Counted from the first letter of the stretch, positions 1 through 14,106 are shown. The stretch: 14,226 bases of DNA from a virus (UHGV-0207341), one strand, 5' to 3'. The notes: generated by a model from the letters alone, not told the origin. Numbers and translations are program-made.

Positions 1-1706
1 TTCAGGGATACCGCGTAGCCCGCATTGCTGAAATGCTGGGCGAGAAAGTTGCAACCGTTCACAGCTGGAAAAAACGCGACAAGTGGGGTGACTATGGGCC
101 GCTGGATCAGATGCAGCTCACCACCGCCGCACGCTATTGCCAGCTCATTATGAAGGAGCACAAAGAAGGGAAAGATTTCAAAGAAATTGACCTGCTGGCG
201 CGCCAGTCGGAGCGCCACGCGCGGATCGGCAAGTTTAACAATGGCGGCAACGAAGCCGACTTAAACCCTAACGTCGCCAACCGCAACAAGGGCCCGCGCC
301 GTCAGCCGGAAAAGAATGTTTTCACCGATGAACAGATTGAGAAGCTGGAAGAAATCTTCCATTCCTCCATGTTCAACTACCAGCGCCACTGGTGGGAAGC
401 CGGAAAAACCAACCGCATCCGCAACCTGCTGAAGTCACGCCAGATCGGCGCGACCTTTTACTTTGCCCGTGAAGCCCTGATTGACGCCCTGCTTACCGGA
501 CGTAACCAGATTTTCCTTTCCGCCAGTAAGGCACAGGCTCACGTCTTTAAGCAGTACATCATCGACTTCGCCAAAGAAGTGGAGGTGGAGCTGAAAGGCG
601 ATCCGATGGTGCTTCCTAACGGGGCCACGCTTTACTTCCTCGGCACCAATGCCCGCACGGCCCAGAGTTATCACGGCAACCTGTATCTGGATGAATATTT
701 CTGGATACCGAAATTTCAGGAGCTGCGCAAAGTGGCTTCCGGTATGGCTATTCACAAGAAATGGCGGCAGACCTATTTTTCCACACCATCCAGTCTGACC
801 CACAGTGCTTATCCGTTCTGGTCCGGTGCGCTGTTCAACCGTGGGCGCAACAAAGCTGACAAGGTGGACATCGACCTGTCCCACAGCAATCTGGCCCCCG
901 GCCTTCTGTGCGCCGACGGGCAATACCGCCAGATAGTCACCGTGGAAGATGCGGTGCGCGGCGGCTGTAACCTGTTCGACCTCGACCAGTTGCGCATGGA
1001 GTACAGCCCGGACGAATACCAGAACCTGCTGATGTGTGAGTTCGTGGACGATCTCGCGTCCGTGTTCCCGTTCAGCGAGCTGCAGGCGTGCATGGTAGAC
1101 AGCTGGGAAGTCTGGACCGACTTTCATGCACTGGCCCTTCGCCCGTTTGGCTGGCGCGAAGTGTGGATCGGTTATGACCCGGCAAAAGGTACGCAGAACG
1201 GCGACAGTGCCGGATGCGTGGTGGTGGCACCGCCAGCCGTGTCGGGTGGTAAGTTTCGCATTCTTGAGCGTCACCAGTGGCGCGGGATGGACTTCCGCGC
1301 CCAGGCTGACGCCATCAAAAAACTGACCGAACAGTACAACGTGACCTACATCGGCATCGACTCGACCGGCGTCGGCCACGGGGTTTACGAGAACGTGAAA
1401 GCGTTTTTTCCAGCCGTCCGGGAGTTTGTCTACAACCCCAACGTTAAAAACGCCCTGGTACTCAAAGCCTACGACATTATCAGTCACCGCCGTCTGGAGT
1501 TTGACGCCGGGCATACCGACATTGCGCAGTCCTTTATGGCAATCCGTCGTGCCACCACCGCCAGTGGCAACCGCCCGACCTATGAAGCCAGCCGCAGCGA
1601 AGAAGCCAGCCACGCCGATCTGGCGTGGGCAACGATGCACGCACTGTTTAACGAACCGCTGCAGGGCGAATCCGCCAATACCAGCAATATTGTGGAGATT
1701 TTTTGA
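1..1706 (+). CDS. P: Terminase ATPase (large) subunit, P2 gpP family; 5' end lies upstream of the window
   Basis: Frame is open from the window edge (no stop before the in-frame ATG at 33) to TGA at 1704-1706. Size and character of the 557+ aa translation fit P2-family terminase ATPase subunits (recognition by eye). Stop overlaps the portal start (TGATG), matching the P-then-Q late operon order. Confidence 0.85.
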   Translation, partial: QGYRVARIAEMLGEKVATVHSWKKRDKWGDYGPLDQMQLTTAARYCQLIMKEHKEGKDFKEIDLLARQSERHARIGKFNNGGNEADLNPNVANRNKGPRRQPEKNVFTDEQIEKLEEIFHSSMFNYQRHWWEAGKTNRIRNLLKSRQIGATFYFAREALIDALLTGRNQIFLSASKAQAHVFKQYIIDFAKEVEVELKGDPMVLPNGATLYFLGTNARTAQSYHGNLYLDEYFWIPKFQELRKVASGMAIHKKWRQTYFSTPSSLTHSAYPFWSGALFNRGRNKADKVDIDLSHSNLAPGLLCADGQYRQIVTVEDAVRGGCNLFDLDQLRMEYSPDEYQNLLMCEFVDDLASVFPFSELQACMVDSWEVWTDFHALALRPFGWREVWIGYDPAKGTQNGDSAGCVVVAPPAVSGGKFRILERHQWRGMDFRAQADAIKKLTEQYNVTYIGIDSTGVGHGVYENVKAFFPAVREFVYNPNVKNALVLKAYDIISHRRLEFDAGHTDIAQSFMAIRRATTASGNRPTYEASRSEEASHADLAWATMHALFNEPLQGESANTSNIVEIF

Positions 1707-2734
1707 TGGGAAAGAGTAAAAAGAACCGCGCTGCGTCGACGAACCAGATCCAGCATAAAAGCCAGACTTCAGCCGAAGCATTCAGCTTTGGTGATCCCAT
1801 TCCTGTACTGGACCGCCGCGAACTGCTGGACTATGTGGAATGCGTACAGACGGATCGCTGGTATGAGCCACCCGTAAGTTTTGACGGACTGGCGCGCACC
1901 TTCCGCGCTGCCGTGCATCACAGTTCCCCGATTGCAGTAAAGTGCAACATTCTGACCAGTACCTATATCCCTCATCCGCTGCTCAGCCAACAGGCTTTTT
2001 CGCGTTTTGTGCAGGACTATCTGGTATTTGGTAACGCCTACCTGGAGAAACGCACGAACCGATTCGGTGAAGTTATCGCCCTTGAGCCTGCGCTGGCAAA
2101 ATACACCCGACGTGGGTTAGACCTGGATACCTACTGGTTTGTGCAATACGGCATGACTACGCAGCCGTATCAGTTCACGAAAGGCAGCATTTTTCATCTG
2201 ATGGAACCGGACATCAACCAGGAGATCTACGGCCTGCCCGGTTATCTTTCTGCCATTCCGTCAGCCCTGCTCAACGAGTCCGCCACGCTGTTCCGCCGTA
2301 AGTATTACATCAACGGCAGCCATGCAGGCTTCATCATGTACATGACCGATGCCGCGCAGAATCAGGAGGATGTGAACAACCTCCGCAACGCGATGAAAAG
2401 TGCCAAAGGTCCTGGTAACTTCCGTAACCTGTTTATGTACTCGCCTAACGGTAAAAAAGACGGGCTTCAGATTATCCCGTTGTCAGAAGTCGCGGCGAAG
2501 GATGAATTTCTTAACATCAAGAACGTGAGTCGGGATGACATGATGGCAGCGCATCGTGTGCCGCCACAAATGATGGGGATTATGCCGAATAATGTTGGGG
2601 GGTTTGGGGATGTGGAGAAGGCTAGTAAAGTATTTGTTCGTAATGAGTTATTACCGTTGCAAAAAAGATTACAGGAAATAAACATATGGCTAGATGAGGA
2701 AATAGTAACATTCGATAGTTATCAGCTTACTTGA
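1706..2734 (+). CDS. Q: Portal (capsid vertex) protein, P2 gpQ family
   Basis: 342-aa ORF starting at ATG 1706 (the track's 1703 start is a TTG one codon upstream), with GGAG about 6 nt upstream. Size and position immediately downstream of the terminase gene fit P2 gpQ. Followed by a strong hairpin terminator. Confidence 0.85.
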   Translation: MGKSKKNRAASTNQIQHKSQTSAEAFSFGDPIPVLDRRELLDYVECVQTDRWYEPPVSFDGLARTFRAAVHHSSPIAVKCNILTSTYIPHPLLSQQAFSRFVQDYLVFGNAYLEKRTNRFGEVIALEPALAKYTRRGLDLDTYWFVQYGMTTQPYQFTKGSIFHLMEPDINQEIYGLPGYLSAIPSALLNESATLFRRKYYINGSHAGFIMYMTDAAQNQEDVNNLRNAMKSAKGPGNFRNLFMYSPNGKKDGLQIIPLSEVAAKDEFLNIKNVSRDDMMAAHRVPPQMMGIMPNNVGGFGDVEKASKVFVRNELLPLQKRLQEINIWLDEEIVTFDSYQLT

Positions 2735-2766: not shown

Positions 2767-3369
2767 TCAACCAAGAATGGACTTCAATGACAAATTGAGC
2801 TTATCAATTAATTTTTCATCCTCATAGTTTACAGACTTGATGTTTTTGAGCATCGCAGGCAATTCAGCATCACCAATTATCACAGGAATTATAGGAACAT
2901 AGTTTTCATCTTTTACCGTAGCTTTACGGAGAAAGCCCTCTACCTCTTTTCTTATATATGACTCCATATCTTCATTAGACAGAAGCAATATAGCCGCAGC
3001 GCTATTGTCTATAGCCTGATTAATTTGCTTTTCAATAATCTGCCCGGGCAATATGTTATTTTCATCAAACCATACATCAAAACCTAACTCATTAAGCTTA
3101 CAAGTTATTTGACGGGCCTTATCTTTTTCTTGTACGGGATACATTAGAAATATTTGCTTTCCTTTTTTAACGGCCTTTAGTCTTCTTTCCCTTAATTTCA
3201 TTAACACAATCAAACTCAGGCCAGAATAGGCAAAAGATAAGCCAATCACGGAGATGATAATCTCATCATTAACTCCTTGAAATAAATATGGGAGCCGTGG
3301 AATAAGAGCCATAAGAAACCCAACAACAGCCAATGCAATTGAAATAATATAAAGAGTATTTTTTTTCAT
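2767..3369 (-). CDS. Membrane-anchored TIR-like domain protein (2 predicted N-terminal TM helices plus C-terminal TIR-like domain)
   Basis: 200-aa ORF. Two hydrophobic segments at about residues 6-24 and 37-57, then a basic linker. Residues about 72-200 show the TIR pattern by eye: IFLMY strand, helix, DVWFDENNILPGQII, EKQINQAIDNSAAAILLLS, SYIRKEVEGF helix, VPIIPVII strand. ATG at 3367-3369 directly abuts the TAA of the upstream gene (TAAATG). Gene looks strongly AT-rich versus neighbouring phage core genes. Confidence 0.75.
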   Translation of the reverse strand: MKKNTLYIISIALAVVGFLMALIPRLPYLFQGVNDEIIISVIGLSFAYSGLSLIVLMKLRERRLKAVKKGKQIFLMYPVQEKDKARQITCKLNELGFDVWFDENNILPGQIIEKQINQAIDNSAAAILLLSNEDMESYIRKEVEGFLRKATVKDENYVPIIPVIIGDAELPAMLKNIKSVNYEDEKLIDKLNLSLKSILG

Positions 3370-3786
3370 TTACACACCCTTAATCCACAAAACAAAGGAA
3401 GCAAAAAATAATATGCCGACTAAATTACACCCAATACATAAAACCCAAATTTGACCTTTTGGATTTCCTGTTCGCCCTTCCCAATCTTGATGAAAAGACA
3501 TGATCCCCAGTAATACAAAAAGAGAGAAGGCAAGAAAGCTAGTAGTTCCAATGTACTGATTAACCACTTGGTTAACCGTGGTTACTGTTTGAACAGTTTT
3601 AGTCAAATCATATAAATTCAACAATGATGCACCAATTGTTGATAATATCAACTCATTCCCAAAGTAAAAATCACTCTTTTGCCAACCAGAGGATCTGGCA
3701 AGTTTTTTTACAAAAGCCCCACATAGAATCATCAACAATGGAAAAATTAAAGCAACAACGTATTTATTACCAATGACATCAATCAT
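3370..3786 (-). CDS. Small polytopic inner-membrane protein (about 4 predicted TM helices), unknown function; first gene of the TIR operon
   Basis: 138-aa ORF with ATG at 3784-3786 and AAGGAA about 9 nt upstream. Hydrophobic segments at about residues 10-26, 45-60, 82-98 and 112-135. Stop is immediately followed by the ATG of the TIR-like gene. AT-rich. Confidence 0.7.
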   Translation of the reverse strand: MIDVIGNKYVVALIFPLLMILCGAFVKKLARSSGWQKSDFYFGNELILSTIGASLLNLYDLTKTVQTVTTVNQVVNQYIGTTSFLAFSLFVLLGIMSFHQDWEGRTGNPKGQIWVLCIGCNLVGILFFASFVLWIKGV

Positions 3787-3976
3787 TAATCATCATTCCT
3801 TCAATAAATCGCATCACGCCTTTTTGTTTTTAGCTTCATCCACAACCAGTCACCATCGACATCAATATATCACATACTAAATATATAATAATTTTATCGA
3901 ACTATACAAAGCAACCAAGAGTAAAAATAACATACTCTGCCTTACATTCGAAAGGACATTATTATCCCAACGCGCG

Positions 3977-3995
3977 CTCGTATCCCCGCCACGCC
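3977..3995. other. Candidate cos (cohesive end) site of the P2/186 type
   Basis: The minus strand reads GGCGTGGCGGGGATACGAG. The first 13 nt match my recollection of the conserved GGCG(A/T)GGCGGGGA start of the 19-nt cohesive ends of P2 and 186. It is a GC-rich island in an AT-rich intergenic region, with an inverted repeat TCATGCA-GT-TGCATGA (4018-4033) alongside. Exact ends not verifiable from sequence alone. Confidence 0.35.
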
Positions 3996-4040
3996 TGCCC
4001 GCTTTATGTAGTGGTTTTCATGCAGTTGCATGATCTACGC

Positions 4041-4064
4041 AAAAGCCCGCCAGTTCTGGCGGGC
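4041..4064 (-). terminator. Rho-independent terminator of the 71-aa/280-aa operon
   Basis: GC-rich hairpin GCCCGCCAG-(tt)-CTGGCGGGC at 4045-4064, followed on the minus strand by TTTT (plus-strand AAAA 4041-4044). Lies 49 nt downstream of the stop of the 280-aa gene. Confidence 0.7.
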
Positions 4065-4112
4065 CTCAGCAAAAATGATCCTCAAACGATCATGCGATCT
4101 CATGCAGCATAG

Positions 4113-4955
4113 TCATGCACGATCATTTGACTCAGCATCTGCTGCACGCTTGCTGCGCGAAGATGCACTTTTACTACCAATCTTTCGACAGTTCTTTCTA
4201 TCCCTGGCTTCATTTTCTTTAAATTTGTTATATGTCTCAGTATCAAAAAACGAAATTGTTTCAACCTCATCTTTTGGTATGAGCACACGGAAATCTTCGA
4301 TATTAAGCCGAGACATTCCACTTATCACACCACTATCAAGATAATGTTGGTGATAGTTAGTCGTGATACTAATCGTTAGATCATCTTTATCCCGATATCC
4401 GCTTAACATCGGGAGAAGTTCAAGGTGCTCTGAAAGCCCGTTTTCTAACGCCGGACAAGTAACAAGGCCAACATAGATTTTGCGAGACGACAGAGTTGCT
4501 ATGATCGGAAACTGTCTTGCGGACGCTTCCATAAGTAATGATTCGAAAGCGTTATTACCCACAGCTTTAGCTAAGGCATCCCAGCGACGATCTCCACGTG
4601 ATGTGCGTAACTTATTTCCAAAACCTGAAATCGCAGCGAGGACAATTGAAATCATAACCCATGCTATCTGTTTGATTTCATTTATTCTTTGAAGTTTGTC
4701 TTTCGATGAAGACAACATGCCATTAAAACTGTCAGGTGTTAGATTCAAGGCATTAGCCAGCCAACGAAACCCTCCGCTGACGTTCAAAATAAAGGTGAAA
4801 AAACCGCCAAGGAGAAAAAAAACGATACCCCAGGCAGCCACAAAAAAATAAGCGTCCCAGCCGTTGGAACGCTTATATCGGTATCTTGTTGAAAGTGATA
4901 GGTTTACATAAATAAAACCACTAACCAAAATCACTGCTAAAAGTAATGTTGCCAT
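4113..4955 (-). CDS. Membrane protein of unknown function (3 predicted N-terminal TM helices plus about 170-aa C-terminal soluble domain with a basic tail)
   Basis: 280-aa ORF with ATG at 4953-4955, overlapping the stop of the upstream 71-aa ORF (TAATG). Hydrophobic segments at about residues 3-17, 36-57 and 97-113. Family not recognised. Followed by its own terminator. Confidence 0.7.
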   Translation of the reverse strand: MATLLLAVILVSGFIYVNLSLSTRYRYKRSNGWDAYFFVAAWGIVFFLLGGFFTFILNVSGGFRWLANALNLTPDSFNGMLSSSKDKLQRINEIKQIAWVMISIVLAAISGFGNKLRTSRGDRRWDALAKAVGNNAFESLLMEASARQFPIIATLSSRKIYVGLVTCPALENGLSEHLELLPMLSGYRDKDDLTISITTNYHQHYLDSGVISGMSRLNIEDFRVLIPKDEVETISFFDTETYNKFKENEARDRKNCRKIGSKSASSRSKRAADAESNDRA

Positions 4956-5170
4956 TATCTGGTTCTATTAGTTTTCTCTTTTACAGTGCTCGTTTTGATG
5001 CCTTCAAGCTTATCCATCTGTGCCTTGATGGCATCCATTGCTCTTTTGTTAGACAAGTCTACGGACACAAAACCATCTTTACTAAGATTGAGTTTGTCCT
5101 GGTTCTCTTTAAGAACCCTTGCCAGACGTTCAACTGGGTTACCCAGGCTAAATGCGGCGATGCTTGACAT
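4955..5170 (-). CDS. Small hypothetical protein (71 aa), first gene of a two-gene operon with the 280-aa membrane protein
   Basis: ATG at 5168-5170 with GGGGGAG about 5 nt upstream. Stop overlaps the next ATG by one base. Hydrophilic, no recognisable domain by eye. Confidence 0.6.
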   Translation of the reverse strand: MSSIAAFSLGNPVERLARVLKENQDKLNLSKDGFVSVDLSNKRAMDAIKAQMDKLEGIKTSTVKEKTNRTR

Positions 5171-5440
5171 AACTCCCCCTTTTCACATGGCGCGGAAGTC
5201 TACACTCCGACGCCTACAACCTCAACAGATTATCTTTAAAATTTAGACAACAATATCATCTGTTGATTTCGTTACTTAAACTTAAGTTCAATGCGCTCGA
5301 TCATGCAAGCGGTTTCTTAAGAACTGTTAATTTCCTGGCATATATAGTGGTTAAGGTAACAAATTGACACTAACGCCTCGCATAGCTCGTTGTTCAACCT
5401 TGCTGACGCCAGAAGCAAGTTCAGACGCCAGCAACGTTTC

Positions 5441-5674
5441 TTAATGCAGCCAGCTGTCGTCTTCCCACACCTTCTGCATAATTTTCATCACTTGTTTTCT
5501 TTCTTCGTCCTGTTGCAGTCCGGTCAGTTCCACACCGTTAGAGCTACCTTTGCGGATACGAATTACCGTTTTGGGATACAGGGGGCGCAGATTGCGGTAA
5601 AGCTCGGATTCAAGGGCGTCCAGTGTAGACTGGCTAATCTTCTGCTCTTTATCGATCATTATTTCAATGCGCAT
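5441..5674 (-). CDS. DinI-family protein (resembles the C-terminal DinI-like half of phage 186 Tum antirepressor)
   Basis: Taking the internal ATG at 5672-5674 (GAGGTG 5 nt upstream), the 77-aa product begins MRIEIMIDKEQ and ends WEDDSWLH. This parallels E. coli DinI (MRIEVTIAK ... ETWESADDWFV) by eye. The longer track ORF (start 5746) overlaps the upstream gene and is unlikely. Confidence 0.75.
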   Translation of the reverse strand: MRIEIMIDKEQKISQSTLDALESELYRNLRPLYPKTVIRIRKGSSNGVELTGLQQDEERKQVMKIMQKVWEDDSWLH

Positions 5675-5684
5675 AAAAGTCACC

Positions 5685-5873
5685 TCAGCTGATGACATCC
5701 ATTGAGCGGTTGTATTCGTGGGTTCTGATTTTTGCCATGAGTTCATCAGTCAATTCAGAAACCCACTGCAGAGCCAGCCCCTTCTCTTCATCACTACACT
5801 CACTAGCCGCTACAAGCTTAAGAAAAAAATCAATGCGCTGGAGCTTCAAAGACTCCAAAAAATAGTCCTGCAT
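5685..5873 (-). CDS. Small hypothetical protein (62 aa) immediately upstream of the DinI-like gene; possible N-terminal part of a Tum-like antirepressor
   Basis: ATG at 5871-5873 preceded by AGGAGG about 4 nt upstream. Its TGA stop sits inside the ribosome-binding site of the DinI-like gene. Lies directly downstream of a LexA box. Confidence 0.6.
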   Translation of the reverse strand: MQDYFLESLKLQRIDFFLKLVAASECSDEEKGLALQWVSELTDELMAKIRTHEYNRSMDVIS

Positions 5874-5916
5874 CTTTCCTCCTATAACACCACAAGCAAT
5901 GCTGTATGCATAACCA

Positions 5917-5932
5917 CTGTTTATATTTACAG
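5917..5932 (-). promoter_or_regulatory. LexA (SOS) box overlapping the -10 of a minus-strand promoter upstream of the Tum/DinI-like operon
   Basis: aCTGT-TTATATTT-ACAGta fits the CTGT-N8-ACAG LexA consensus. On the minus strand a -35-like TTTACA (plus 5952-5957) precedes -10 candidates TATACT or TACTGT that overlap the box. Located about 40 nt upstream of the 62-aa ORF start. Confidence 0.6.
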
Positions 5933-6027
5933 TATATAATAATCTTACTGATGTAAAACGTTTTTTTTACGTTCATCAGCCTGATATGCCTGGTATTATT
6001 AAGAGCACGAATTGTTAATCCGCGTAA

Positions 6028-8442
6028 TTAATACAGGTTCCGCCACTTATCATCTTCCTGCAAACGCTGGTTCCGATAGAAGATACGCAGGCCTGCTCCT
6101 GACGGAATGCTGCCGCCGCGAAGGAGTAAATCGACCTCTTTCTCGCTGCCATCAAATCCTCTGGACTTCAGTTCATAGACGAGCTGCTGTCGTTGATGGT
6201 CTGTAATTCGCTGTTTGTAGTCTTTACGCCGTTTCGGTTTCACCAGGCGTAACCTTGCTGCCAGTTCCCGGCGCTCTTTTTTGCTCATACTGTGCAGGTA
6301 ATCGTGCAACTCCTTGTCATCCATACGGGTGATATCCGTTCTGGTATCTCCATCAGCTGATTTGTCTTTCCCTTGTTGGTACAAATTTTCAGCAAGGGGA
6401 CAGTTATTGCCACGAGTCCAAGGGGCGCAAGCGCCCTGGTCGGCTACCGCCTCCTGAACGTCAACGGCCTTACGAACCATTTTCCACTTCACTGCATGAG
6501 TGCAGATCTTGCCCTCTGCAATGGGTGACCAGATGCCATAAATACGAATGCCGTGATCGCCATAGGCGGTCGGCTCTTCGTTGATTTCATAAGCGGTTCT
6601 GATAAGGTGATATTTACGGGGAACCAGTACGCCGCCCTGCTTCATGATGTAGGTGGCAAAACAACCAGCATCAGCAGCAGCCAGGATGGCATCAAGGCGC
6701 GGGTCATCCAGTATCGGCGCACCTGCTTTTTTGTCACCCTGTTGCCTTGCCGCCTGACCAGCCAGCAAGCGAAGTTCACGGTAAGCCTGACGTCCCGGAA
6801 TACCAAAGAAGCGGAACTGCTGAACACGATGCAGAGACGCCCAGGCATTAACGTATTCGGCGTTATCACGCAGGGATTTACCCGTTTCCTTGCTGATCTC
6901 GCCAGCCAGACCACGCCCGTCAATGTTCTTACTGATGTATTTCGCGATGTAGCTTGTCGGTGTTCCTTTGCGCGGGTTAATCAGCTCAGACTTAAAGCGT
7001 GGCCCCGTGTTGTTGCCCAGCTCCTCGCGGTCTACACGGATGGCAAACTTACGCAGTAATGCAGTGATGGCGCGGCGGTCTTTTTTACGCATGAAGCACA
7101 TGAGATGCCAGTGCACAGTACCGTCATGGTGCGGCTCAGCCACCCGCACGCCATACCAGCGCAACCCGGTTTTGTGCATTGCCTTACGAAATGCAGCAAA
7201 CATGCCGACCATATAATCGCTGCTTTGTCTTACCGTCGCATTTGTCCAGGTCGGGTTGGGTCTGCCGTTGTTGAGCGTGGAATGGAAACGTGACGGACAG
7301 GTGATAGTGTAGAAAACGGCGCAGTCACCGCGCATTTCCGCGATAAGCTCCAGACCTTTAACACAGGCCATCATCTCATTGCGGCGATGCGCAGGGTTGC
7401 TGCTGCTGGCGTTTACCACATCCTCCATGTCCAGCGTGTCGCCGTCTTCGTTCACCAGTTCATGAGAACGGAAAAACTCCAGCGACTTACGGCGCAGCTC
7501 ACGTTTATGCATCACGGCTTCATAGCTGACATAGGGAGATGCTTTTTTGCTGACCAGGCAGACAGCACGCAACTGCTCTTCCCGCCATTCGCAACGCATC
7601 TTCCATAATTTCCGATACCACCAGTCGGCGCACAACATACGCGCCAGCGAACCCGGAATGAGTTCATAGGGCACGGGTTTACGGCGGTTTCTTTTCCGAC
7701 GGAGTAGCTCAAACGCAGGTGGGATGACATCCAGACGCAGGGTTTCCGCCGCCACCTTTTCCCATGTCTTGCGGATTTCTTCTGGCTTAACGTCATCGGT
7801 GGCATACAAATCGCCACAAGCTGCATCAAGGCACATGCTCATATGCGCAGCTACCAGGGTGGACAGGCGTTTCACCTGATCCTGACTCATTTCAGGCAGG
7901 ATCAGCAGGCCCTCCAGCCCTTGATGGCTTGCCATAAAACGGAAAGAAGCAGACAGCTGACTGTCACGTACACAATCCAGTCGCTCCAGACATGGCTTAA
8001 TCGTCTCACGCAAATAGCGGGAATAAGCCTTTGGCCTGCCCAGGCTGCTGAAGTATTCGATACGTTGCATCAGCGGCTTGCTAATATGGGTGGGCTGGGC
8101 GCTGACGTCCGCCAGAATGACCATGTCCGGGTTAAAACGCTGCTGTTCATGCGCTAGCTTTGCCCGGCTAATGAGCTTATCCTGCTCCATTTCGCGCTGG
8201 ACAGGATCACGAGATTCATTAAAGAAATAACGCTCCCAGACCTGCTCACTCAGTGCATCGCGGCGCAGCTGTTCCTGCTCATTATCGGCAGCGTACAGAG
8301 TGATCAGGTTTAAAAGTGCAGACTCCGGAGCAACTTCCGCCGGGTCCAGATAAGGGTTAATGGCCTTTTTCGGGCCGTTCCATGAAAATGCTGCAGCGGC
8401 CTCGTTAAAGCCGCTAGAGTTGCTCATATCGTCATGACTCAT
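6028..8442 (-). CDS. A: Replication initiation protein (rolling-circle initiator endonuclease), P2 gpA family
   Basis: 804-aa ORF, the largest in the early operon. Size, position downstream of small early genes and general character fit P2/186 A protein (recognition by eye; catalytic motifs not verified). Start ATG at 8440-8442 overlaps the Dam stop (ATGA); a second in-frame ATG five codons downstream is an alternative start. Confidence 0.8.
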
Positions 8443-9296
8443 ACACGCACCTCGTACACAGCAGAACTATCCACGCCACACGAAGGATCAAATCCCACCC
8501 AGCAGCGCGCCCCGGAAACAGCAATGATTTCTGTTGCAGATTTACTCTCGCCAGCCGACACGCCGATGCTGCGTTTTGCCTTGATGTAGTGGTGAGTGAA
8601 ATTTCGATACAGCGAACGGATCAGGGATGTGTCACTGTTAGAAACAATGACTGGATGACCTTCTGATGATCGATATTCAAGAACAGATGCCAGGTGATAC
8701 TGGTCATCTTCAGTGAAGCCGTCAGTGTGATAGCCGGAAAACGTACCGTCATAAGGCGGATCGCAATACACCACATCCCCCACCTGCAGCATCGCCAGCG
8801 TTTCATCAAAGCTGGCGCAGATAAACGTTGCTCGCTGGGCTTTCTCTGCAAATGCGCGAATTTCTTTTTCAGGGAAATACGGATTTTTATAATTACCGTA
8901 TGGAATGTTGAAATGCCCGCTCTTGTTATAACGACATAACCCACGGTAACCATGACGATTGAGATACAGGAAATATACCGCTTTCATGAAATCAGTAATT
9001 TCAGTGGAGTAATTAAACTCCTGCCTTATGTTGTAATAAGCCACCTCCCTGTTTGCTTCCTCAAATAAAGCTCTGGCACGAGATATAAACGCCTCGCAAT
9101 CAGCAGCAACCTTTTTATAGAGGTTGATTAAATCAGGATTAATATCCGCAACAAGATAGCTGGGGTAATCCGTCTCCATCATCACAGCACAGGAACCCGC
9201 GAAAGGTTCAACCAGTCGCGGGCCAGCAGGAAGATGTTTTTTCAGTTCGGACATAATGGCAGTTTTATTACCCGCCCATTTCAGGATGGTGCTCAT
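8439..9296 (-). CDS. dam: DNA adenine methyltransferase (Dam-like, N6-adenine)
   Basis: 285 aa from ATG at 9294-9296. Translation contains [33 protein letters not shown] and DPPY, paralleling E. coli Dam almost motif-for-motif by eye. Start overlaps the upstream stop (ATGA) and stop overlaps the A start. Confidence 0.85.
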
Positions 9297-9595
9297 ACAG
9301 CACCTCCTGCAATAACATATCCTAAAGCTTCTAATGGGGTTAATGGGCGAATTGATAGCATCACCCATTGTTCTGAAACTGCCATGACGTCATTAACCGG
9401 AAGCACATGAGAGATAACAGCGGCCCATTCCCTACCCGTAAATACGCCATGCTTCCATTCGCAAAGAGAAAGAACATCACCAACTTTATAGCCACGATCG
9501 TCTTTACGAAGTTCAGCCGTCTTTTGACCTGCAACCACAGCGTTGAAATACTTAGGTGCAATTTTTAATTGATGGATACGCACTGCCCTTGTCAT
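9293..9595 (-). CDS. DUF3850/ASCH-like (PUA-fold) small protein
   Basis: 100 aa from ATG at 9593-9595. The N-terminal pattern [35 protein letters not shown] is typical of DUF3850 proteins, which often accompany phage methyltransferases (recognition by eye). Start overlaps the upstream stop (ATGA). Confidence 0.6.
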
Positions 9596-10791: not shown

Positions 10792-11021
10792 ATACTTCGC
10801 CGATAACGTTCAAGAGGTGATGTCTTTATACGCATCACTTCTTGTACTTTTTCACCACGTATAAAGGTTCCATCCTTTAGCGTGAAAAAGTAGCTACCAT
10901 CGCCCGACAACGACGGATAGCAACAGAGCAAATCATCTTCAGGTACTGAATAACTCTCCCCTCTGTAACGAAACTGATAAACCACTTCACTTTCTGCCGC
11001 ATACATTTGGACTTTCTCCAT
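10782..11021 (-). CDS. Hypothetical early protein (79 aa)
   Basis: ATG at 11019-11021 with only a weak ribosome-binding site. Protein-like translation. An overlapping ORF in another frame starts right after cII (see findings). Confidence 0.45.
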   Translation of the reverse strand: MEKVQMYAAESEVVYQFRYRGESYSVPEDDLLCCYPSLSGDGSYFFTLKDGTFIRGEKVQEVMRIKTSPLERYRRSIYR

Positions 11022-11180
11022 TTTCTCGTGGTCAATTCAGACAGCAATTCATCTTGTGAATGACATGGATGCCAGCGTTTACCATCCTCACCCATGATCC
11101 AGCCGTGACCGTAGTGCATTGCCGGGCTTTGCTTTACCAGCAGCGATGCAAATGATGGTTCTTTCGTAAGCATAAGCACC

Positions 11181-11690
11181 TCACAGCAAACCGAATGAAG
11201 CACCGAGGCCAGTCACGGTATCAACTGCGCTCGCCATCGCAGGATTAGCCTGTAAACGGGCCTGCAATGAAACAGCAGCCAGCGCCATCAGTCGTGTTAC
11301 AGAGTTAATGCTGCTGATAGCATCACGACGACCTGCACTGGTTTTTACATCGCCAGATACCGCACCTGCAGCAACACGCCCGATCTCTGCGGTTGCACTC
11401 ATGACGTAATGTGGCAGTTTCTCTTTTGCCACCTCATTAATTGGTACACATGGCAGACAATGAATCTGTGCCAGAAAACCATCTACCAGCGTTGAATCCT
11501 CAGTCAGATCGGTAAGCAGCCAGATGTCTGGTGCGGTTAATAAATGAGGTTGAGCTGGGTTCAGCTTGTTCCGCAGAATCTGCACATTCATGCCTGCACG
11601 TTCTGCCAGTTGCACCAGGTTGTGGCGCAACGCGAATGCACGACAGGCTTCATCAAAATGTGGATGTTTGGAAACTTGGTAATCAAACAT
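11181..11690 (-). CDS. cII: CII-like transcriptional activator (phage 186 CII family)
   Basis: 169 aa from ATG at 11688-11690 (GGGGTG 6 nt upstream; the track's 11744 start is a TTG overlapping apl). The N-terminus [10 protein letters not shown]... and the 169-aa length match my recollection of 186 CII. Position immediately downstream of apl fits. Confidence 0.7.
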
Positions 11691-11722
11691 AGTCGACACC
11701 CCTGATATATCCCAAAATGGAA

Positions 11723-11944
11723 CTAGTTGAATACAACATTGCAATCAGTAAGTGCATCAACGGTAAGAGCAGCAAGGTTGATCATTACCTTTTCTCTTTT
11801 TTTGTCCTTCCGGAGACGATGCCGAGGGATGCGGCCATCAGCCAGCATATCGTTGATTGTGTCGATAGAAAGACCAGTAAGTTCGCTATAACGCTCAATT
11901 GTGACGTGTGGTGTGTTCAGAGTGATTGAAATGTTTGGGTTCAT
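11723..11944 (-). CDS. apl: Apl/Cox-like excisionase and switch repressor (small HTH protein)
   Basis: 73 aa from ATG at 11942-11944 with AAGGAA about 9 nt upstream. Contains an HTH-like segment ([17 protein letters not shown]). First gene of the leftward operon, divergent from cI. Confidence 0.65.
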
Positions 11945-12090
11945 GGTGCAACATTCCTTCTTTAATTCGGCTTGTGGCGAGCCGTTGTTTATCGTGATTA
12001 GTTGTGAAGGCTCCAAAAGAAGACTTCGAGGTCAACTTTAAGATCGCTTTTGGAATCTGTCAATGCAATTTAGATTGTTTTGGAGGACTC
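11945..12090. promoter_or_regulatory. Lysis-lysogeny switch region between divergent apl and cI (candidate face-to-face lytic and lysogenic promoters)
   Basis: 146-bp intergenic region. On the minus strand, TTGACA (plus 12058-12063), a 17-nt spacer and TAAAGT (plus 12035-12040) form a good lytic-promoter candidate firing toward apl. Its position between apl and the cI start matches the face-to-face arrangement described for 186. No convincing plus-strand lysogenic promoter found by eye. Confidence 0.4.
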
Positions 12091-12654
12091 TTGAATTTCA
12101 ATAGCGGCGGAAAGAAAGTGATTGAACGTTTGGTTGAGGCGTATGGTTTCACCACTCGTCAGGCCCTTTGCGACCACTTAGGGGTTTCAAAGAGCACAAT
12201 GGCAACCCGCTACATGCGTGACATTTTTCCAGCAGATTGGGTACTTCAATGCGTTGTAGAAACTGGTACTTCAATTGATTGGCTGGTATCAGGGAAAGGT
12301 GAGTTAAAAACCACAGCAGTCAACTCTTTGGTAGACGTTGAAACTCGCGAACTAAAAAATGGAGAGGCTATTGCACTTGGAACGCACAAGATTGATCCAG
12401 TCTTTCTTCTCAATGAAATAAAATCTGCATTAGCGATAAAAATTAACCAACATGTTTACATTTGTGACCGAGAAGACACTACCATTTCTGATGGTCAATG
12501 GTTGGTGGATATAGAAGGAAAACTGAGTATTAAAAAAATCAATTTGATACCAGTCAAAAGAGCAATGGTATCTGGGGATGGTTTTTCATTTGAATGTGAT
12601 ATTAGTGATATAAAACCTATAGCTAAGGTTCATACCGTAATCAGTGAGGCTTAA
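12091..12654 (+). CDS. cI: CI-type immunity repressor (phage 186 CI family)
   Basis: Translation has an N-terminal HTH (EAYGFTTRQALCDHLGVSKSTMATRY ... ETGTSIDWLVSGKG) and a C-terminal domain of 186-CI character. There is no in-frame ATG before the HTH. A TTG at 12091 with GGAGG 4 nt upstream gives 187 aa and leaves the lytic-promoter candidate upstream; the track start (GTG at 12004) would bury that promoter in coding sequence. Confidence 0.65.
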   Translation: MNFNSGGKKVIERLVEAYGFTTRQALCDHLGVSKSTMATRYMRDIFPADWVLQCVVETGTSIDWLVSGKGELKTTAVNSLVDVETRELKNGEAIALGTHKIDPVFLLNEIKSALAIKINQHVYICDREDTTISDGQWLVDIEGKLSIKKINLIPVKRAMVSGDGFSFECDISDIKPIAKVHTVISEA

Positions 12655-14106
12655 ATGGATATTGAGTGGAATTGGGATCAAGATGACGAATTTCTTGGTG
12701 AAAAATTACCTGCTGATACATTGGACAGAAAAAAGTACGCAAAATATCTTTATGAAATCTGTGCTGCACGCGGTGCTAAATCCAATCTCGTAGTTAACAT
12801 TAATGCGGAATGGGGGGCTGGAAAAACATATTTTACTAAACGCCTAGCCAAGACAATTTCCCACTACCATCCCACAATATACATTGATGCTTGGAAAGAA
12901 GATTTTACTGAAGACCCATTGCTCACAGTATTTAGTGGAATTAAAGATCAATTATCTGGTCAATCTGATAGCTTTACTGCTTTAATCAATTCAACAATTG
13001 AGAATGTCGGTCCTTTGCTAAAAACAGCGGCACCAGTTATTATTGATGGATTAATACAAAAGTTCACAGGGGTTGACTCCTTTTCTAACCTAACTAAAGA
13101 CTTATCATCTAAGCTAATAGAAATACACGCAGAAAAATCAACGAGAATAGAGACAGTAAGAAAAGGAATTAGTCGTTGGGTTGAATTCATTGGGCGAAAA
13201 GATGGAATAGATAAAGAGCTTCCATTATTTATAATAATTGATGAACTTGATAGATGTAGGCCCGATTTTTCCATTAGTCTTTTAGAAATCTCCAAGCATA
13301 TTTTTAACATCCCTGGCGTAGTATTTATTATTGCCACTGACACCCAACAATTACAGCATTCAATAAAAGTTATATATGGCACTAATTTTTCAGCAAGTCA
13401 TTATCTAAGCAGGTTTTTTGACCGTCGATTCCTTCTCCCAACGCCAGAATACAAAGACTTACTATTAACAAAAACAGGTGAAAACATAATTTCGGAATTT
13501 AATTCTTTACGTAAAAAATTAATTCCATGCCCACAAGACATCACATCATTTGTTAAAAATTGTTCATCCATATTATTATCCATAAAAATAAACATCAGAG
13601 ACGCTGTAAAAATATACGAGAGGCTAATAGACATACTTATCACGTCAAATAAAACATTTGACCCCAATCTAATGTTGATATTATCTGCATTTAATTTCAA
13701 AGATCATGATGTATATGCAAAAATAAAATCAAAAGAAAAGCTAATTCCTAGTCCTCTCAACACAGAGATAGATTTATCATTTGATTTATCTTATGAAACT
13801 ACACAAGTCAAGTACTTCCAAGCTAATGGTGGTGTTTATAGTAATACGTATAAACAAAAAGAAATTTCAACAAATGTTCTATTTTACATAGAGACTGCTT
13901 GGAACACCTTAACGATAGCAAGAACCGCACCTGTTGGCACGCGACCTTACAATACTCCAGAACTTTGGATGGAAGGAGAGTTGTCTCAGGAGGAATCATT
14001 AGCGAACTTTCTCAAAATGGGATACGCCAAAAGCCGGTACAATGAAAGTGAACTAAAAATTCATCAATATTTCGATTTAATTGAACTGAGCACAACATTT
14101 GATTGA
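12655..14106 (+). CDS. KAP-family P-loop NTPase (soluble variant), accessory gene in the repressor operon
   Basis: 483-aa ORF. Walker A in NINAEWGAGKTYF, the KAP-typical IDAWKEDF motif, and Walker B in FIIIDELDRCRP (the DELDRC signature). ATG at 12655 follows the cI TAA with zero spacer, with GAGG 5 nt upstream. Looks strongly AT-rich. No obvious TM insert between Walker A and B. Confidence 0.8.
   Translation: MDIEWNWDQDDEFLGEKLPADTLDRKKYAKYLYEICAARGAKSNLVVNINAEWGAGKTYFTKRLAKTISHYHPTIYIDAWKEDFTEDPLLTVFSGIKDQLSGQSDSFTALINSTIENVGPLLKTAAPVIIDGLIQKFTGVDSFSNLTKDLSSKLIEIHAEKSTRIETVRKGISRWVEFIGRKDGIDKELPLFIIIDELDRCRPDFSISLLEISKHIFNIPGVVFIIATDTQQLQHSIKVIYGTNFSASHYLSRFFDRRFLLPTPEYKDLLLTKTGENIISEFNSLRKKLIPCPQDITSFVKNCSSILLSIKINIRDAVKIYERLIDILITSNKTFDPNLMLILSAFNFKDHDVYAKIKSKEKLIPSPLNTEIDLSFDLSYETTQVKYFQANGGVYSNTYKQKEISTNVLFYIETAWNTLTIARTAPVGTRPYNTPELWMEGELSQEESLANFLKMGYAKSRYNESELKIHQYFDLIELSTTFD

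Follow-up and report, generated by a model that had tools for sequence, protein, structure and literature searches.

Phage 186 carries an SOS operon, p95-tum, in which the annotated promoter p95 has the −35 hexamer TTCACA, an 18-nt spacer and the −10 hexamer TACTGT, the latter lying within the LexA site, and in which tum is followed by orf97. According to the biochemical work of Shearwin et al. (1998), as cited, the Tum protein binds the CI repressor and prevents operator binding, and its expression induces the prophage. The 186 record also includes internal starts leading to DinI-like truncated Tum products that "modulate SOS induction". An organization with two genes in place of one has been described for phages PSP3 and Fels-2. 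The GenBank record of PSP3 shows a 60-amino acid tumA, annotated as "similar to 5' end 186 tum; UV induction of prophage" and located behind a LexA box, and tumB, annotated as "similar to dinI and 3' end of 186 tum". The relevant passage of Lemire et al. (2011, PMC3121763) assigns the antirepressor activity of PSP3 to the upstream gene, tumA, on the basis of a personal communication. In Fels-2, a prophage of Salmonella Typhimurium LT2, the corresponding genes are STM2728 and STM2726.1, the latter annotated as "DinI family protein, similar to TumB of PsP3", and the lethality of lexA-null mutations in Salmonella has been linked to this prophage (Bunny, Liu and Roth 2002, as cited in PMC3121763).

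[quoted passage not shown] They differ in that dinI comes first in the gene order and in the type of repressor that GfoA and GftA target. Gifsy induction was not significantly affected when the dinI homologs were removed by non-polar deletion (Lemire et al. 2011, PMC3121763). E. coli DinI itself, as cited in the same article, binds and modulates RecA filaments.

The locus described here is part of a 14,226-nucleotide stretch of DNA, referred to as the window. A preliminary description had read it as a LexA-controlled Tum/DinI-like module in two cistrons, and all the features it listed were found in place. On sequence grounds the region very probably serves the SOS induction of a 186/Fels-2-like P2-family prophage and represents the common bicistronic form of such modules, i.e., a LexA-controlled tumA antirepressor gene followed by a tumB gene coding for a DinI homolog. 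This two-gene form has already been described for Fels-2 and PSP3; it is ordinary, not new.

Genetic organization of the window

The window belongs to a 186/Fels-2-like prophage of the P2 family that encodes a CI repressor of the 186 type. Its main landmarks and the two genes of the module are as follows.

33-2734, plus strand: large terminase and portal genes.
5441..5674, minus strand: ORF2, tumB-like DinI-family protein, 77 amino acids, ATG at 5674, stop at 5441.
5686..5683, minus strand: ORF2 Shine-Dalgarno sequence GAGG, overlapping the ORF1 TGA.
5685..5873, minus strand: ORF1, tumA-like predicted antirepressor, 62 amino acids, ATG at 5873, stop TGA at 5687..5685.
5883..5878, minus strand: ORF1 Shine-Dalgarno sequence AGGAGG, 4 nt before the ATG.
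8442..6028, minus strand: replication gene A (gpA replicase), which belongs to a minus-strand early operon with an Apl/Cox-like gene, cII, fil, DUF5347, DUF2732, a DksA-like zinc finger and a Dam methylase.
10877-12654: switch genes for CI, an Apl-like protein, CII and Fil.
12004..12654, plus strand: 186-type CI immunity repressor, the presumed antirepressor target (Pfam Phage_CI_repr 8e-30, Phage_CI_C 7e-24), whose true start codon is uncertain.

The module lies just downstream of gene A, the place occupied in 186 by the p95-tum operon, and a 186-type CI/Apl/CII switch is present in the same phage. The correspondence with Fels-2 is almost complete: ORF1 and ORF2 are 98.4% (tblastn) and 98.7% identical to STM2728 and STM2726.1, respectively, and in both phages the module follows gpA, has the LexA box CTGTAAATATAAACAG at −59 and leaves 10 nt between two cistrons that stand in the same frame relation. 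The two differ only in the cargo found downstream, which is a 243-amino acid hypothetical protein in Fels-2 and proteins of 71, 280 and 138 amino acids plus a TIR protein in the window. PSP3 shares the succession, after gpA, of a LexA box, a gene of about 60 codons and a 77-amino acid DinI gene, as well as the stem-loop and box element found 3' of the module. However, its TumA belongs to another sequence family, its tumA and tumB are in the same frame and separated by TAG plus one codon, its LexA box is at −38 instead of −59, and its CI is of a different type. The likeness to 186 includes the layout of promoter and LexA operator, the genomic position, and the 186-type CI, CII, Apl and Fil switch; the N-terminal half of Tum resembles ORF1 at the profile level and the C-terminal half is related to ORF2. 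In 186, however, both halves are found in one 146-amino acid polypeptide, its CI is only 33% identical to that of the window, and orf97 is located downstream of tum. The 280-amino acid protein of the window was compared with Orf97 as a possible homolog and the two were unrelated.

Among the complete E. coli genomes, 1125 of 5426 (21%) carry the module, and tblastn with ORF1 returned matches in 66 phage records from Klebsiella, Escherichia, Salmonella, Yersinia and Cronobacter. Related loci were compiled in two censuses. The first comprised 33 genome loci plus Fels-2, ESSI-2 and ev015, and covered Escherichia, Citrobacter, Enterobacter, Klebsiella, Serratia, Pantoea, Tatumella, Erwinia and others. 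The DinI gene was intact in 18 of its loci, disrupted in 4 and absent in 15, and homologs of ORF1 standing without a partner occur in ESSI-2-like phages and Salmonella prophages. The second comprised 62 further non-identical loci and included three TumA families.

The LexA box and the promoter

The preliminary description had noted a near-consensus LexA box over the −10 of a minus-strand promoter. A perfect CTGT-N8-ACAG core was indeed found at this location, together with the following elements.

5915..5934, minus strand: LexA operator TACTGTAAATATAAACAGTG, with the core CTGTAAATATAAACAG at 5917-5932.
5902..5917, minus strand: degenerate second LexA-like box GTGGTTATGCATACAG, with 2 core mismatches, binding doubtful.
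5929..5934, minus strand: −10 hexamer TACTGT, inside the LexA box, 17-nt spacer from the −35.
5952..5957, minus strand: −35 hexamer TTTACA, putative equivalent of that of p95, judging from the layout.

Of the 20 positions of TACTGTAAATATAAACAGTG (5934..5915), 17 agree with the E. coli consensus TACTGTATATATATACAGTA, and the core of this 20-mer is the sole CTGT-N8-ACAG in the 14.2-kb window, for which the chance expectation is 0.13. The promoter has the same layout as 186 p95, including an identical −10 hexamer within the LexA site, with a spacer of 17 nt where p95 has 18 nt. A generic promoter scanner called no promoter because the −10 TACTGT fits TATAAT at only 3 of 6 positions, and the promoter assignment therefore rests on the analogy with p95.

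These last observations could be taken to mean that the LexA-like box arose by chance or has decayed and that the operon is outside SOS control, being transcribed constitutively or by read-through from the early operon. The weak −10 and the blank promoter scan are compatible with such a situation, as are the 24 of 200 shuffled windows that had at least one CTGT-N8-ACAG and the one-mismatch box (CTGT...CCAG) present in place of a perfect one in some relatives, namely the E. coli loci L048-L050. Against this, the position of the box relative to the −35, the −10 and the start codon is that of the annotated p95/LexA site of 186, and the box is kept while the spacer sequence varies across dozens of genera. 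In the first census a CTGT-N8-ACAG with no more than one mismatch was located 37-95 nt upstream of the ORF1 homolog in 35 of 37 loci, the two exceptions being a contig end and a pseudogene. In the second, a perfect box was present in 52 of 62 loci, and 3 of the 10 loci lacking it had too little upstream sequence to judge. Furthermore, a DinI-family gene is a classic SOS gene, and an unregulated antirepressor would be incompatible with stable lysogeny, in line with the lexA-null lethality that the source cited above links to Fels-2. The box is thus more than chance as judged from the sequence comparisons, and a location of the module outside SOS control is very unlikely. Considering the sequence and the work on 186, PSP3 and Fels-2, LexA would be expected to bind this site and transcription of the module would be damage-inducible.

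The degenerate second box GTGGTTATGCATACAG coincides with a position at which some relatives have a second box with one core mismatch. Three loci (L007, L021 and L023) have two LexA boxes 15 nt apart, and the LexA boxes of 186 and PSP3 align to the second-box position, 5902..5917.

ORF2 is a DinI-family gene

The 77-amino acid ORF2 had been described as a DinI-family protein whose ribosome-binding site overlaps the stop codon of the 62-amino acid ORF. Both parts of this description agree with the Pfam DinI (PF06183) match, which has 82.3 bits against a cut-off of 24.2 and an E value of 3e-23 and spans profile positions 1-63 of 63, and with the GAGG found over the TGA. The alignments to Tum and DinI that the preliminary description had called for point the same way: ORF2 is 41% identical to residues 71-145 of 186 Tum, and it aligns with E. 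coli DinI (PDB 1GHH) over its full length (residues 1-75 versus 1-77, E 1.6e-6). The start codon of ORF2 is located 10 nt after the ORF1 stop. Its product is most likely a modulator of RecA filaments and of the SOS response.

The frame of ORF2 is open upstream to an ATG at 5746, which confirms that it overlaps ORF1 around 5685-5746 as had been pointed out previously, and initiation at this ATG would produce a 101-amino acid protein. Among the 18 intact homologs the 101-amino acid extension is present only in the window, Fels-2 and the locus L006, with a shorter version of 92 amino acids in L026. As far as the homologous sequences indicate, the upstream extension is not a conserved coding feature.

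ORF1 is a remote homolog of the N-terminal half of Tum

The 62-amino acid ORF had been reported to have a strong ribosome-binding site, and the AGGAGG located 4 nt upstream of its ATG agrees with this. Neither Pfam nor PADLOC gave a match for ORF1, which falls in PHROG 698 (phrog_698, "unknown function"). Pairwise BLASTP aligned ORF1 with neither 186 Tum nor PSP3 TumA, and it did not align PSP3 TumA with 186 Tum either. Homologs of ORF1, PSP3 TumA and 186 Tum were then gathered and the profiles derived from trimmed alignments were compared using hhalign. The ORF1 family matched the N-domain family of 186 Tum with a probability of 95.6%, an E value of 1.1e-8 and a score of 42.1 (residues 2-44 versus 2-44), and the PSP3 TumA family matched the same N-domain family with a probability of 87% and an E value of 3.9e-6. 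The control consisting of 100 column shuffles of the target profile scored 9.5 ± 2.5 with a maximum of 20.4, and reversed profiles scored 6-7. Since the scores exceed the shuffle control, both relationships are considered real. The direct comparison of the ORF1 and PSP3 TumA families was marginal (probability 3%, E 0.014) and within the shuffle range.

Over about 45 residues the three TumA families can be aligned with no internal gap, and Cys26 and Ala34 are invariant. An AlphaFold2 model of ORF1 is a confident helical hairpin (pLDDT 89, helices 2-23 and 28-61) in which the invariant Cys is predicted to sit in the turn. A search for solved structures of ORF1 found none, and the only PDB structures that Foldseek retrieved with the model were generic helical hairpins, none of them at E ≤ 0.001. 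These comparisons indicate that ORF1 is a profile-level homolog of the N-terminal half of 186 Tum, and it is termed remote because the pairwise BLASTP was negative. The preliminary description had proposed this alignment as a check and had named two separate genes in related prophages, combined with a lack of similarity of ORF1 to the Tum N-terminus, as an outcome that would speak against a Tum-like module. The related prophages do keep two separate genes, but the similarity to Tum exists at the profile level.

The ORF1 frame is under strong purifying selection. Diversity at codon positions 1, 2 and 3 was 0.085, 0.026 and 0.329 over codons 1-48, and 0.24, 0.20 and 0.44 in the tail, where most of the variation is likewise at position 3. 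This pattern indicates that translation of ORF1 keeps to its own frame up to its own stop codon. The length of 62 codons is kept in 31 loci of the first census.

ORF2 is the only one of the two proteins with a recognizable Pfam domain, and one could propose that it is the DinI-like protein that acts as the induction effector, ORF1 being an unrelated small ORF or a leader peptide with no role in antirepression. The listing of phrog_698 as a family of unknown function and the negative BLASTP comparison with Tum would fit such a proposal. It conflicts, however, with the profile homology and the purifying selection just described and with the finding that ORF1 is the conserved LexA-linked part of the module, being intact at the 4 loci where ORF2 has decayed and at the 15 where it is absent. 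It also conflicts with the assignment of PSP3 antirepressor activity to the upstream gene, for which the published passage gives a personal communication, and with the behavior of the Gifsy dinI deletions. We regard an effector role for ORF2 with no antirepressor contribution of ORF1 as highly improbable. The ORF1 product is the one that most likely binds the 186-type CI of the prophage, relieving the lytic promoter.

Two genes and not a frameshifted tum

The preliminary description had left open whether the locus was genuinely bicistronic or a frameshifted tum. The bicistronic option was borne out by the comparison with relatives and the frameshift option was not. A single interrupted gene could have originated by a sequencing error or as a pseudogene, or the two frames could be joined by a programmed +1 slip at GCAAAAATC, connecting residues 1-48 of ORF1 to the extension of the ORF2 frame in a product of about 143 amino acids. 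The ORF2 frame open to 5746 would permit this in the window, and a +1 slip on the A5 run would lead to a product colinear with the 146-amino acid Tum of 186. Nevertheless, the same DNA is present at 95% identity or more in about 1000 of the complete E. coli genomes mentioned above, where it is annotated as two genes, and sequencing error is thereby excluded. The A5 run is not conserved, GCGAAAATC, GCGAAGATT and similar sequences being found instead, and in most relatives the +1 frame contains stop codons. In the 18 relatives in which both genes are intact the DinI start is located 9-12 nt after the ORF1 stop, with the DinI gene in frame 0 in 5, in +1 in 6 and in +2 in 7. The frame spread is the same in 33 further ORF1-type loci, none of them fused, and over both censuses the DinI start is 9-13 nt after the ORF1 stop. 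In addition, the variation in the ORF1 tail is still mostly at codon position 3 of its own frame. A phmmer search with ORF1 against 1.8 billion representatives identified 66 clusters at E ≤ 0.001, nearly all of them short and none with a DinI domain fused after the ORF1-like part.

The distribution of split and fused forms in the second census was as follows.

ORF1 type: 33 split with an adjacent DinI gene, 4 without an adjacent DinI gene, 0 fused.
PSP3 TumA type: 9 split with an adjacent DinI gene, 6 without, 0 fused.
186 type: 2 split with an adjacent DinI gene, 4 without, 4 fused.

The fused form was thus found exclusively in the 186-type family (4 of 10 loci versus 0 of 52 in the other two families), and in about 100 related loci examined the small gene was never fused in the ORF1 family. 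Programmed frameshifting was discarded for lack of a conserved slippery site and of a conserved frame relation. Since the ORF1-type gene is never fused and the DinI gene may be found in any frame, decayed or absent, the frameshift alternative is rejected; a frameshifted tum of any kind is scarcely conceivable. The arrangement of two separate genes, tumA-like and tumB-like, is the one considered in what follows.

TumA families and CI repressors

Co-variation between TumA type and CI type was inspected in 19 loci, a comparison that is confounded by linkage. The CI repressors do cluster with the TumA family: those of the PSP3 type are 74-100% identical to each other and those of the 186 type 63-100%. 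In ORF1-type loci the CI N-terminal domains show a moderate identity of 51-73% and the C-terminal domains one of 27-53%. In three E. coli prophages whose TumA proteins are identical, the C-terminal domains of CI share only 32-37% identity, and in prophages with near-identical ORF1 proteins the values are only 31-37%. Moreover, at one locus (L053) a 186-type Tum is paired with a divergent CI. Due to these divergent C-terminal domains and the pairing at L053, the clustering does not demonstrate a cognate TumA-CI specificity; it could reflect linkage within phage lineages. The higher conservation of the N-terminal domain at most hints that the antirepressor may recognize this domain or a conserved surface. 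A lesser possibility is that one nearly invariant antirepressor acts on many divergent CI proteins through their more conserved N-terminal domain.

A conserved element 3' of the module

Just 3' of tumA/tumB there is a covarying stem-loop accompanied by an invariant GGTTGAACAACGAG box.

5370..5438, minus strand: 3' element, consisting of a 17-bp interrupted stem-loop (5396-5438), the box GGTTGAACAACGAG (5399..5386) and then GCGAGGCGTTAG.

The stem-loop begins with AAC-G, followed by a 9-bp stem, one unpaired base, a 5-bp stem and a 5-nt loop, and continues as the mirror image ending in G-GTT. RNAalifold analysis of 17 distinct copies predicted 17 pairs, of which 8 show compensatory double changes. 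In these copies 93.4% of the cells were paired, compared with 33-48% in slid controls, and the covariation score was 0.47 versus 0.08-0.18 in the controls, a value reached by 0 of 500 shuffles. The 19 G·U cells in the stem favor the sense strand. No match was found in Rfam, either at the gathering threshold or at E ≤ 1.

The element is also present in 186, where it lies between orf97 and t95b, a terminator with an annotation of its own, and twice in PSP3, where the copies flank gp37, as well as in Fels-2-like phages and many prophages; it is absent from the P2 right end. The exact 14-mer was found in 80 viral contigs, about 58 of which contain this hairpin, its stem sequences being very diverse. 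In most of these approximately 58 contigs the box is located 43-56 nt after the last gene of the SOS module, be it tumA alone, tumB or orf97. This placement holds for all three TumA families, and the portal gene is found 0.45-4.8 kb further on. The P2-family defense hotspot lies between gpA and the portal gene (Rousset et al. 2022), and the element marks its gpA-proximal edge; two papers on the P2 defense hotspot make no mention of it.

Two functional assignments were considered and discarded. As an intrinsic terminator the stem-loop lacks a U-run, the sequence after the stem being GGUUGAACAACGAG. The second was an integron attC-like site. In attC sites a 7-bp R''/R' pairing (RYYYAAC/GTTRRRY) closes an imperfect hairpin. 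In the element GTTGAAC fits GTTRRRY, yet only AAC and GTT (3 bp) pair, and the likeness is treated as coincidental. Tentatively, and with more doubt than confidence, the element may be viewed as a third, undescribed conserved part of the SOS module, either a sense-strand RNA element or a recombination boundary for the exchange of hotspot cargo. If it were an RNA element, it would process, stabilize or gate the read-through of the SOS transcript into the variable defense cargo; if it were a recombination boundary, it would be the site at which this cargo is exchanged.

Proposed mechanism and implications

The best-supported reading of the module is the 186 paradigm spread over two proteins. In the undamaged lysogen the host LexA, bound to the operator over the −10, would keep the operon off. 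DNA damage would lead to RecA-stimulated self-cleavage of LexA and de-repression of the promoter, and a single transcript would then direct the synthesis of two small proteins, the 62-amino acid hairpin protein and the 77-amino acid DinI homolog. The TumA-like hairpin protein would bind the 186-type CI (12004-12654) and take it off the lytic promoter, resulting in induction without repressor cleavage, while the DinI-like protein, whose start lies so close to the tumA stop, would modulate RecA filaments and the SOS response and be dispensable for antirepression. Both CI binding and RecA binding are attributed to these proteins by extension of the work on 186, PSP3 and Fels-2.

The LexA-linked small gene appears as the constant core of the module and the DinI gene as a dispensable part, and ORF2 is most likely not required for antirepression. 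This view fits the assignment of PSP3 antirepressor activity to the upstream gene, the annotation of the truncated Tum products of 186 as modulators, and the Gifsy dinI deletions.

The value of this result is practical and concerns annotation. The "hypothetical protein" adjoining a "DinI-like family protein" in approximately one fifth of the complete E. coli genomes can be predicted from its sequence to be a tumA-type antirepressor, and the same gain in annotation would apply to many prophages of Klebsiella, Salmonella, Citrobacter, Enterobacter and Pantoea. Annotation pipelines and PHROGs, through the phrog_698 entry, have not yet been updated with the tumA assignment. Since they would encode a tumA-type antirepressor, such prophages should be SOS-inducible without repressor cleavage. 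The census also indicates that the textbook fused Tum of 186 is a minority form and that its DinI half is an optional accessory.

LexA-type boxes and the architecture of the Tum genes

The tum module of the window carries a perfect LexA-type box at -59, and a second position (5902-5917, minus strand) holds only the degenerate sequence GTGGTTATGCATACAG. Three of the homologous loci compared (L007, L021 and L023) have a pair of LexA-type boxes at a spacing of 15 nt, of which the second has a mismatch at one core position. 186 and PSP3 have a single box in the promoter-distal position, about -37 relative to the start codon. Within the 186 Tum family itself (N-domain loci L045-L047, L051-L053, L064 and L130), stand-alone genes coding for the N-domain are common and encode proteins of 63-78 amino acids; some of them carry the NCBI name "Tum protein". 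The fused architecture was found in only 4 of the 10 loci of this family in our census, and therefore the textbook 146-amino acid Tum is a minority architecture.

A conserved stem-loop 3' of the tum module

A stem-loop, with the invariant box GGTTGAACAACGAG and then GCGAGGCGTTAG after it, is found at the following locations:

Window 5370-5438, minus strand: stem-loop with covariation, and invariant box
L001 (phage 186) 4340-4415: the 186 copy
L005 (PSP3) 4550-4614 and 4955-5019: the two PSP3 copies

Covariation is strong, with compensatory changes in 8 of the 17 pairs, and 93% of cells are paired as compared to 33-48% in slid controls. In most phages examined, representing all three TumA families, the box lies 43-56 nt beyond the 3' end of the last gene of the SOS module. 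The element includes no U-run, matches no Rfam family and is absent from the right end of P2.

Cargo and accessory genes

The region between the portal gene and the tum module, which lies in the known defence hotspot of the P2 family, is occupied in the window by cargo at 2767-5170 (minus strand). This cargo and two further genes are listed below.

Cargo, minus strand: 71-amino acid protein, phrog_9843
Cargo, minus strand: 280-amino acid protein, phrog_3630
Cargo, minus strand: 138-amino acid protein, phrog_25392
Cargo, minus strand: 200-amino acid TIR-domain protein (Pfam TIR_2, 3.6e-17)
8439-9368, minus strand: Dam-type N6-adenine methyltransferase gene (Pfam MethyltransfD12, 1e-76)
12655-14106, plus strand: KAP-family P-loop NTPase gene (Pfam 9e-36)

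The 280-amino acid protein is not a homologue of Orf97. PADLOC matched the TIR protein to ThsB and SAVED-TIR, both weakly. The stretch from position 5200 to the 3' element showed no terminator-like site, so the cargo and the SOS operon might share a transcript.

The methyltransferase gene overlaps the start of the replication gene A by 4 nt, as it does in Fels-2, whereas 186 has the PAPS-reductase-like orf84 in its place. The KAP NTPase gene, matched by PADLOC to the candidate system PDC-S20 (4e-82), directly follows cI on its downstream side; in 186 and Fels-2 the gene next to cI is int. Different insertions occupy this site in related prophages, among them WYL, SNIPE/T5orf172 and YebY genes.

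CI repressors paired with identical antirepressors

Prophages with identical antirepressor proteins (L048-L050; L051-L053) have strongly differing CI repressors; the cI genes lie upstream of tumA at a distance of about 5-6 kb. Among prophages encoding the antirepressor P0018, identity between the CI C-terminal domains is 32-37%, and among those encoding P0246 the CI C-terminal domain of one locus is only 29-36% identical to those of the other two. Either the antirepressor recognises a surface common to these repressors or their N-terminal domain, which is better conserved, or there are mismatched pairs among these combinations.
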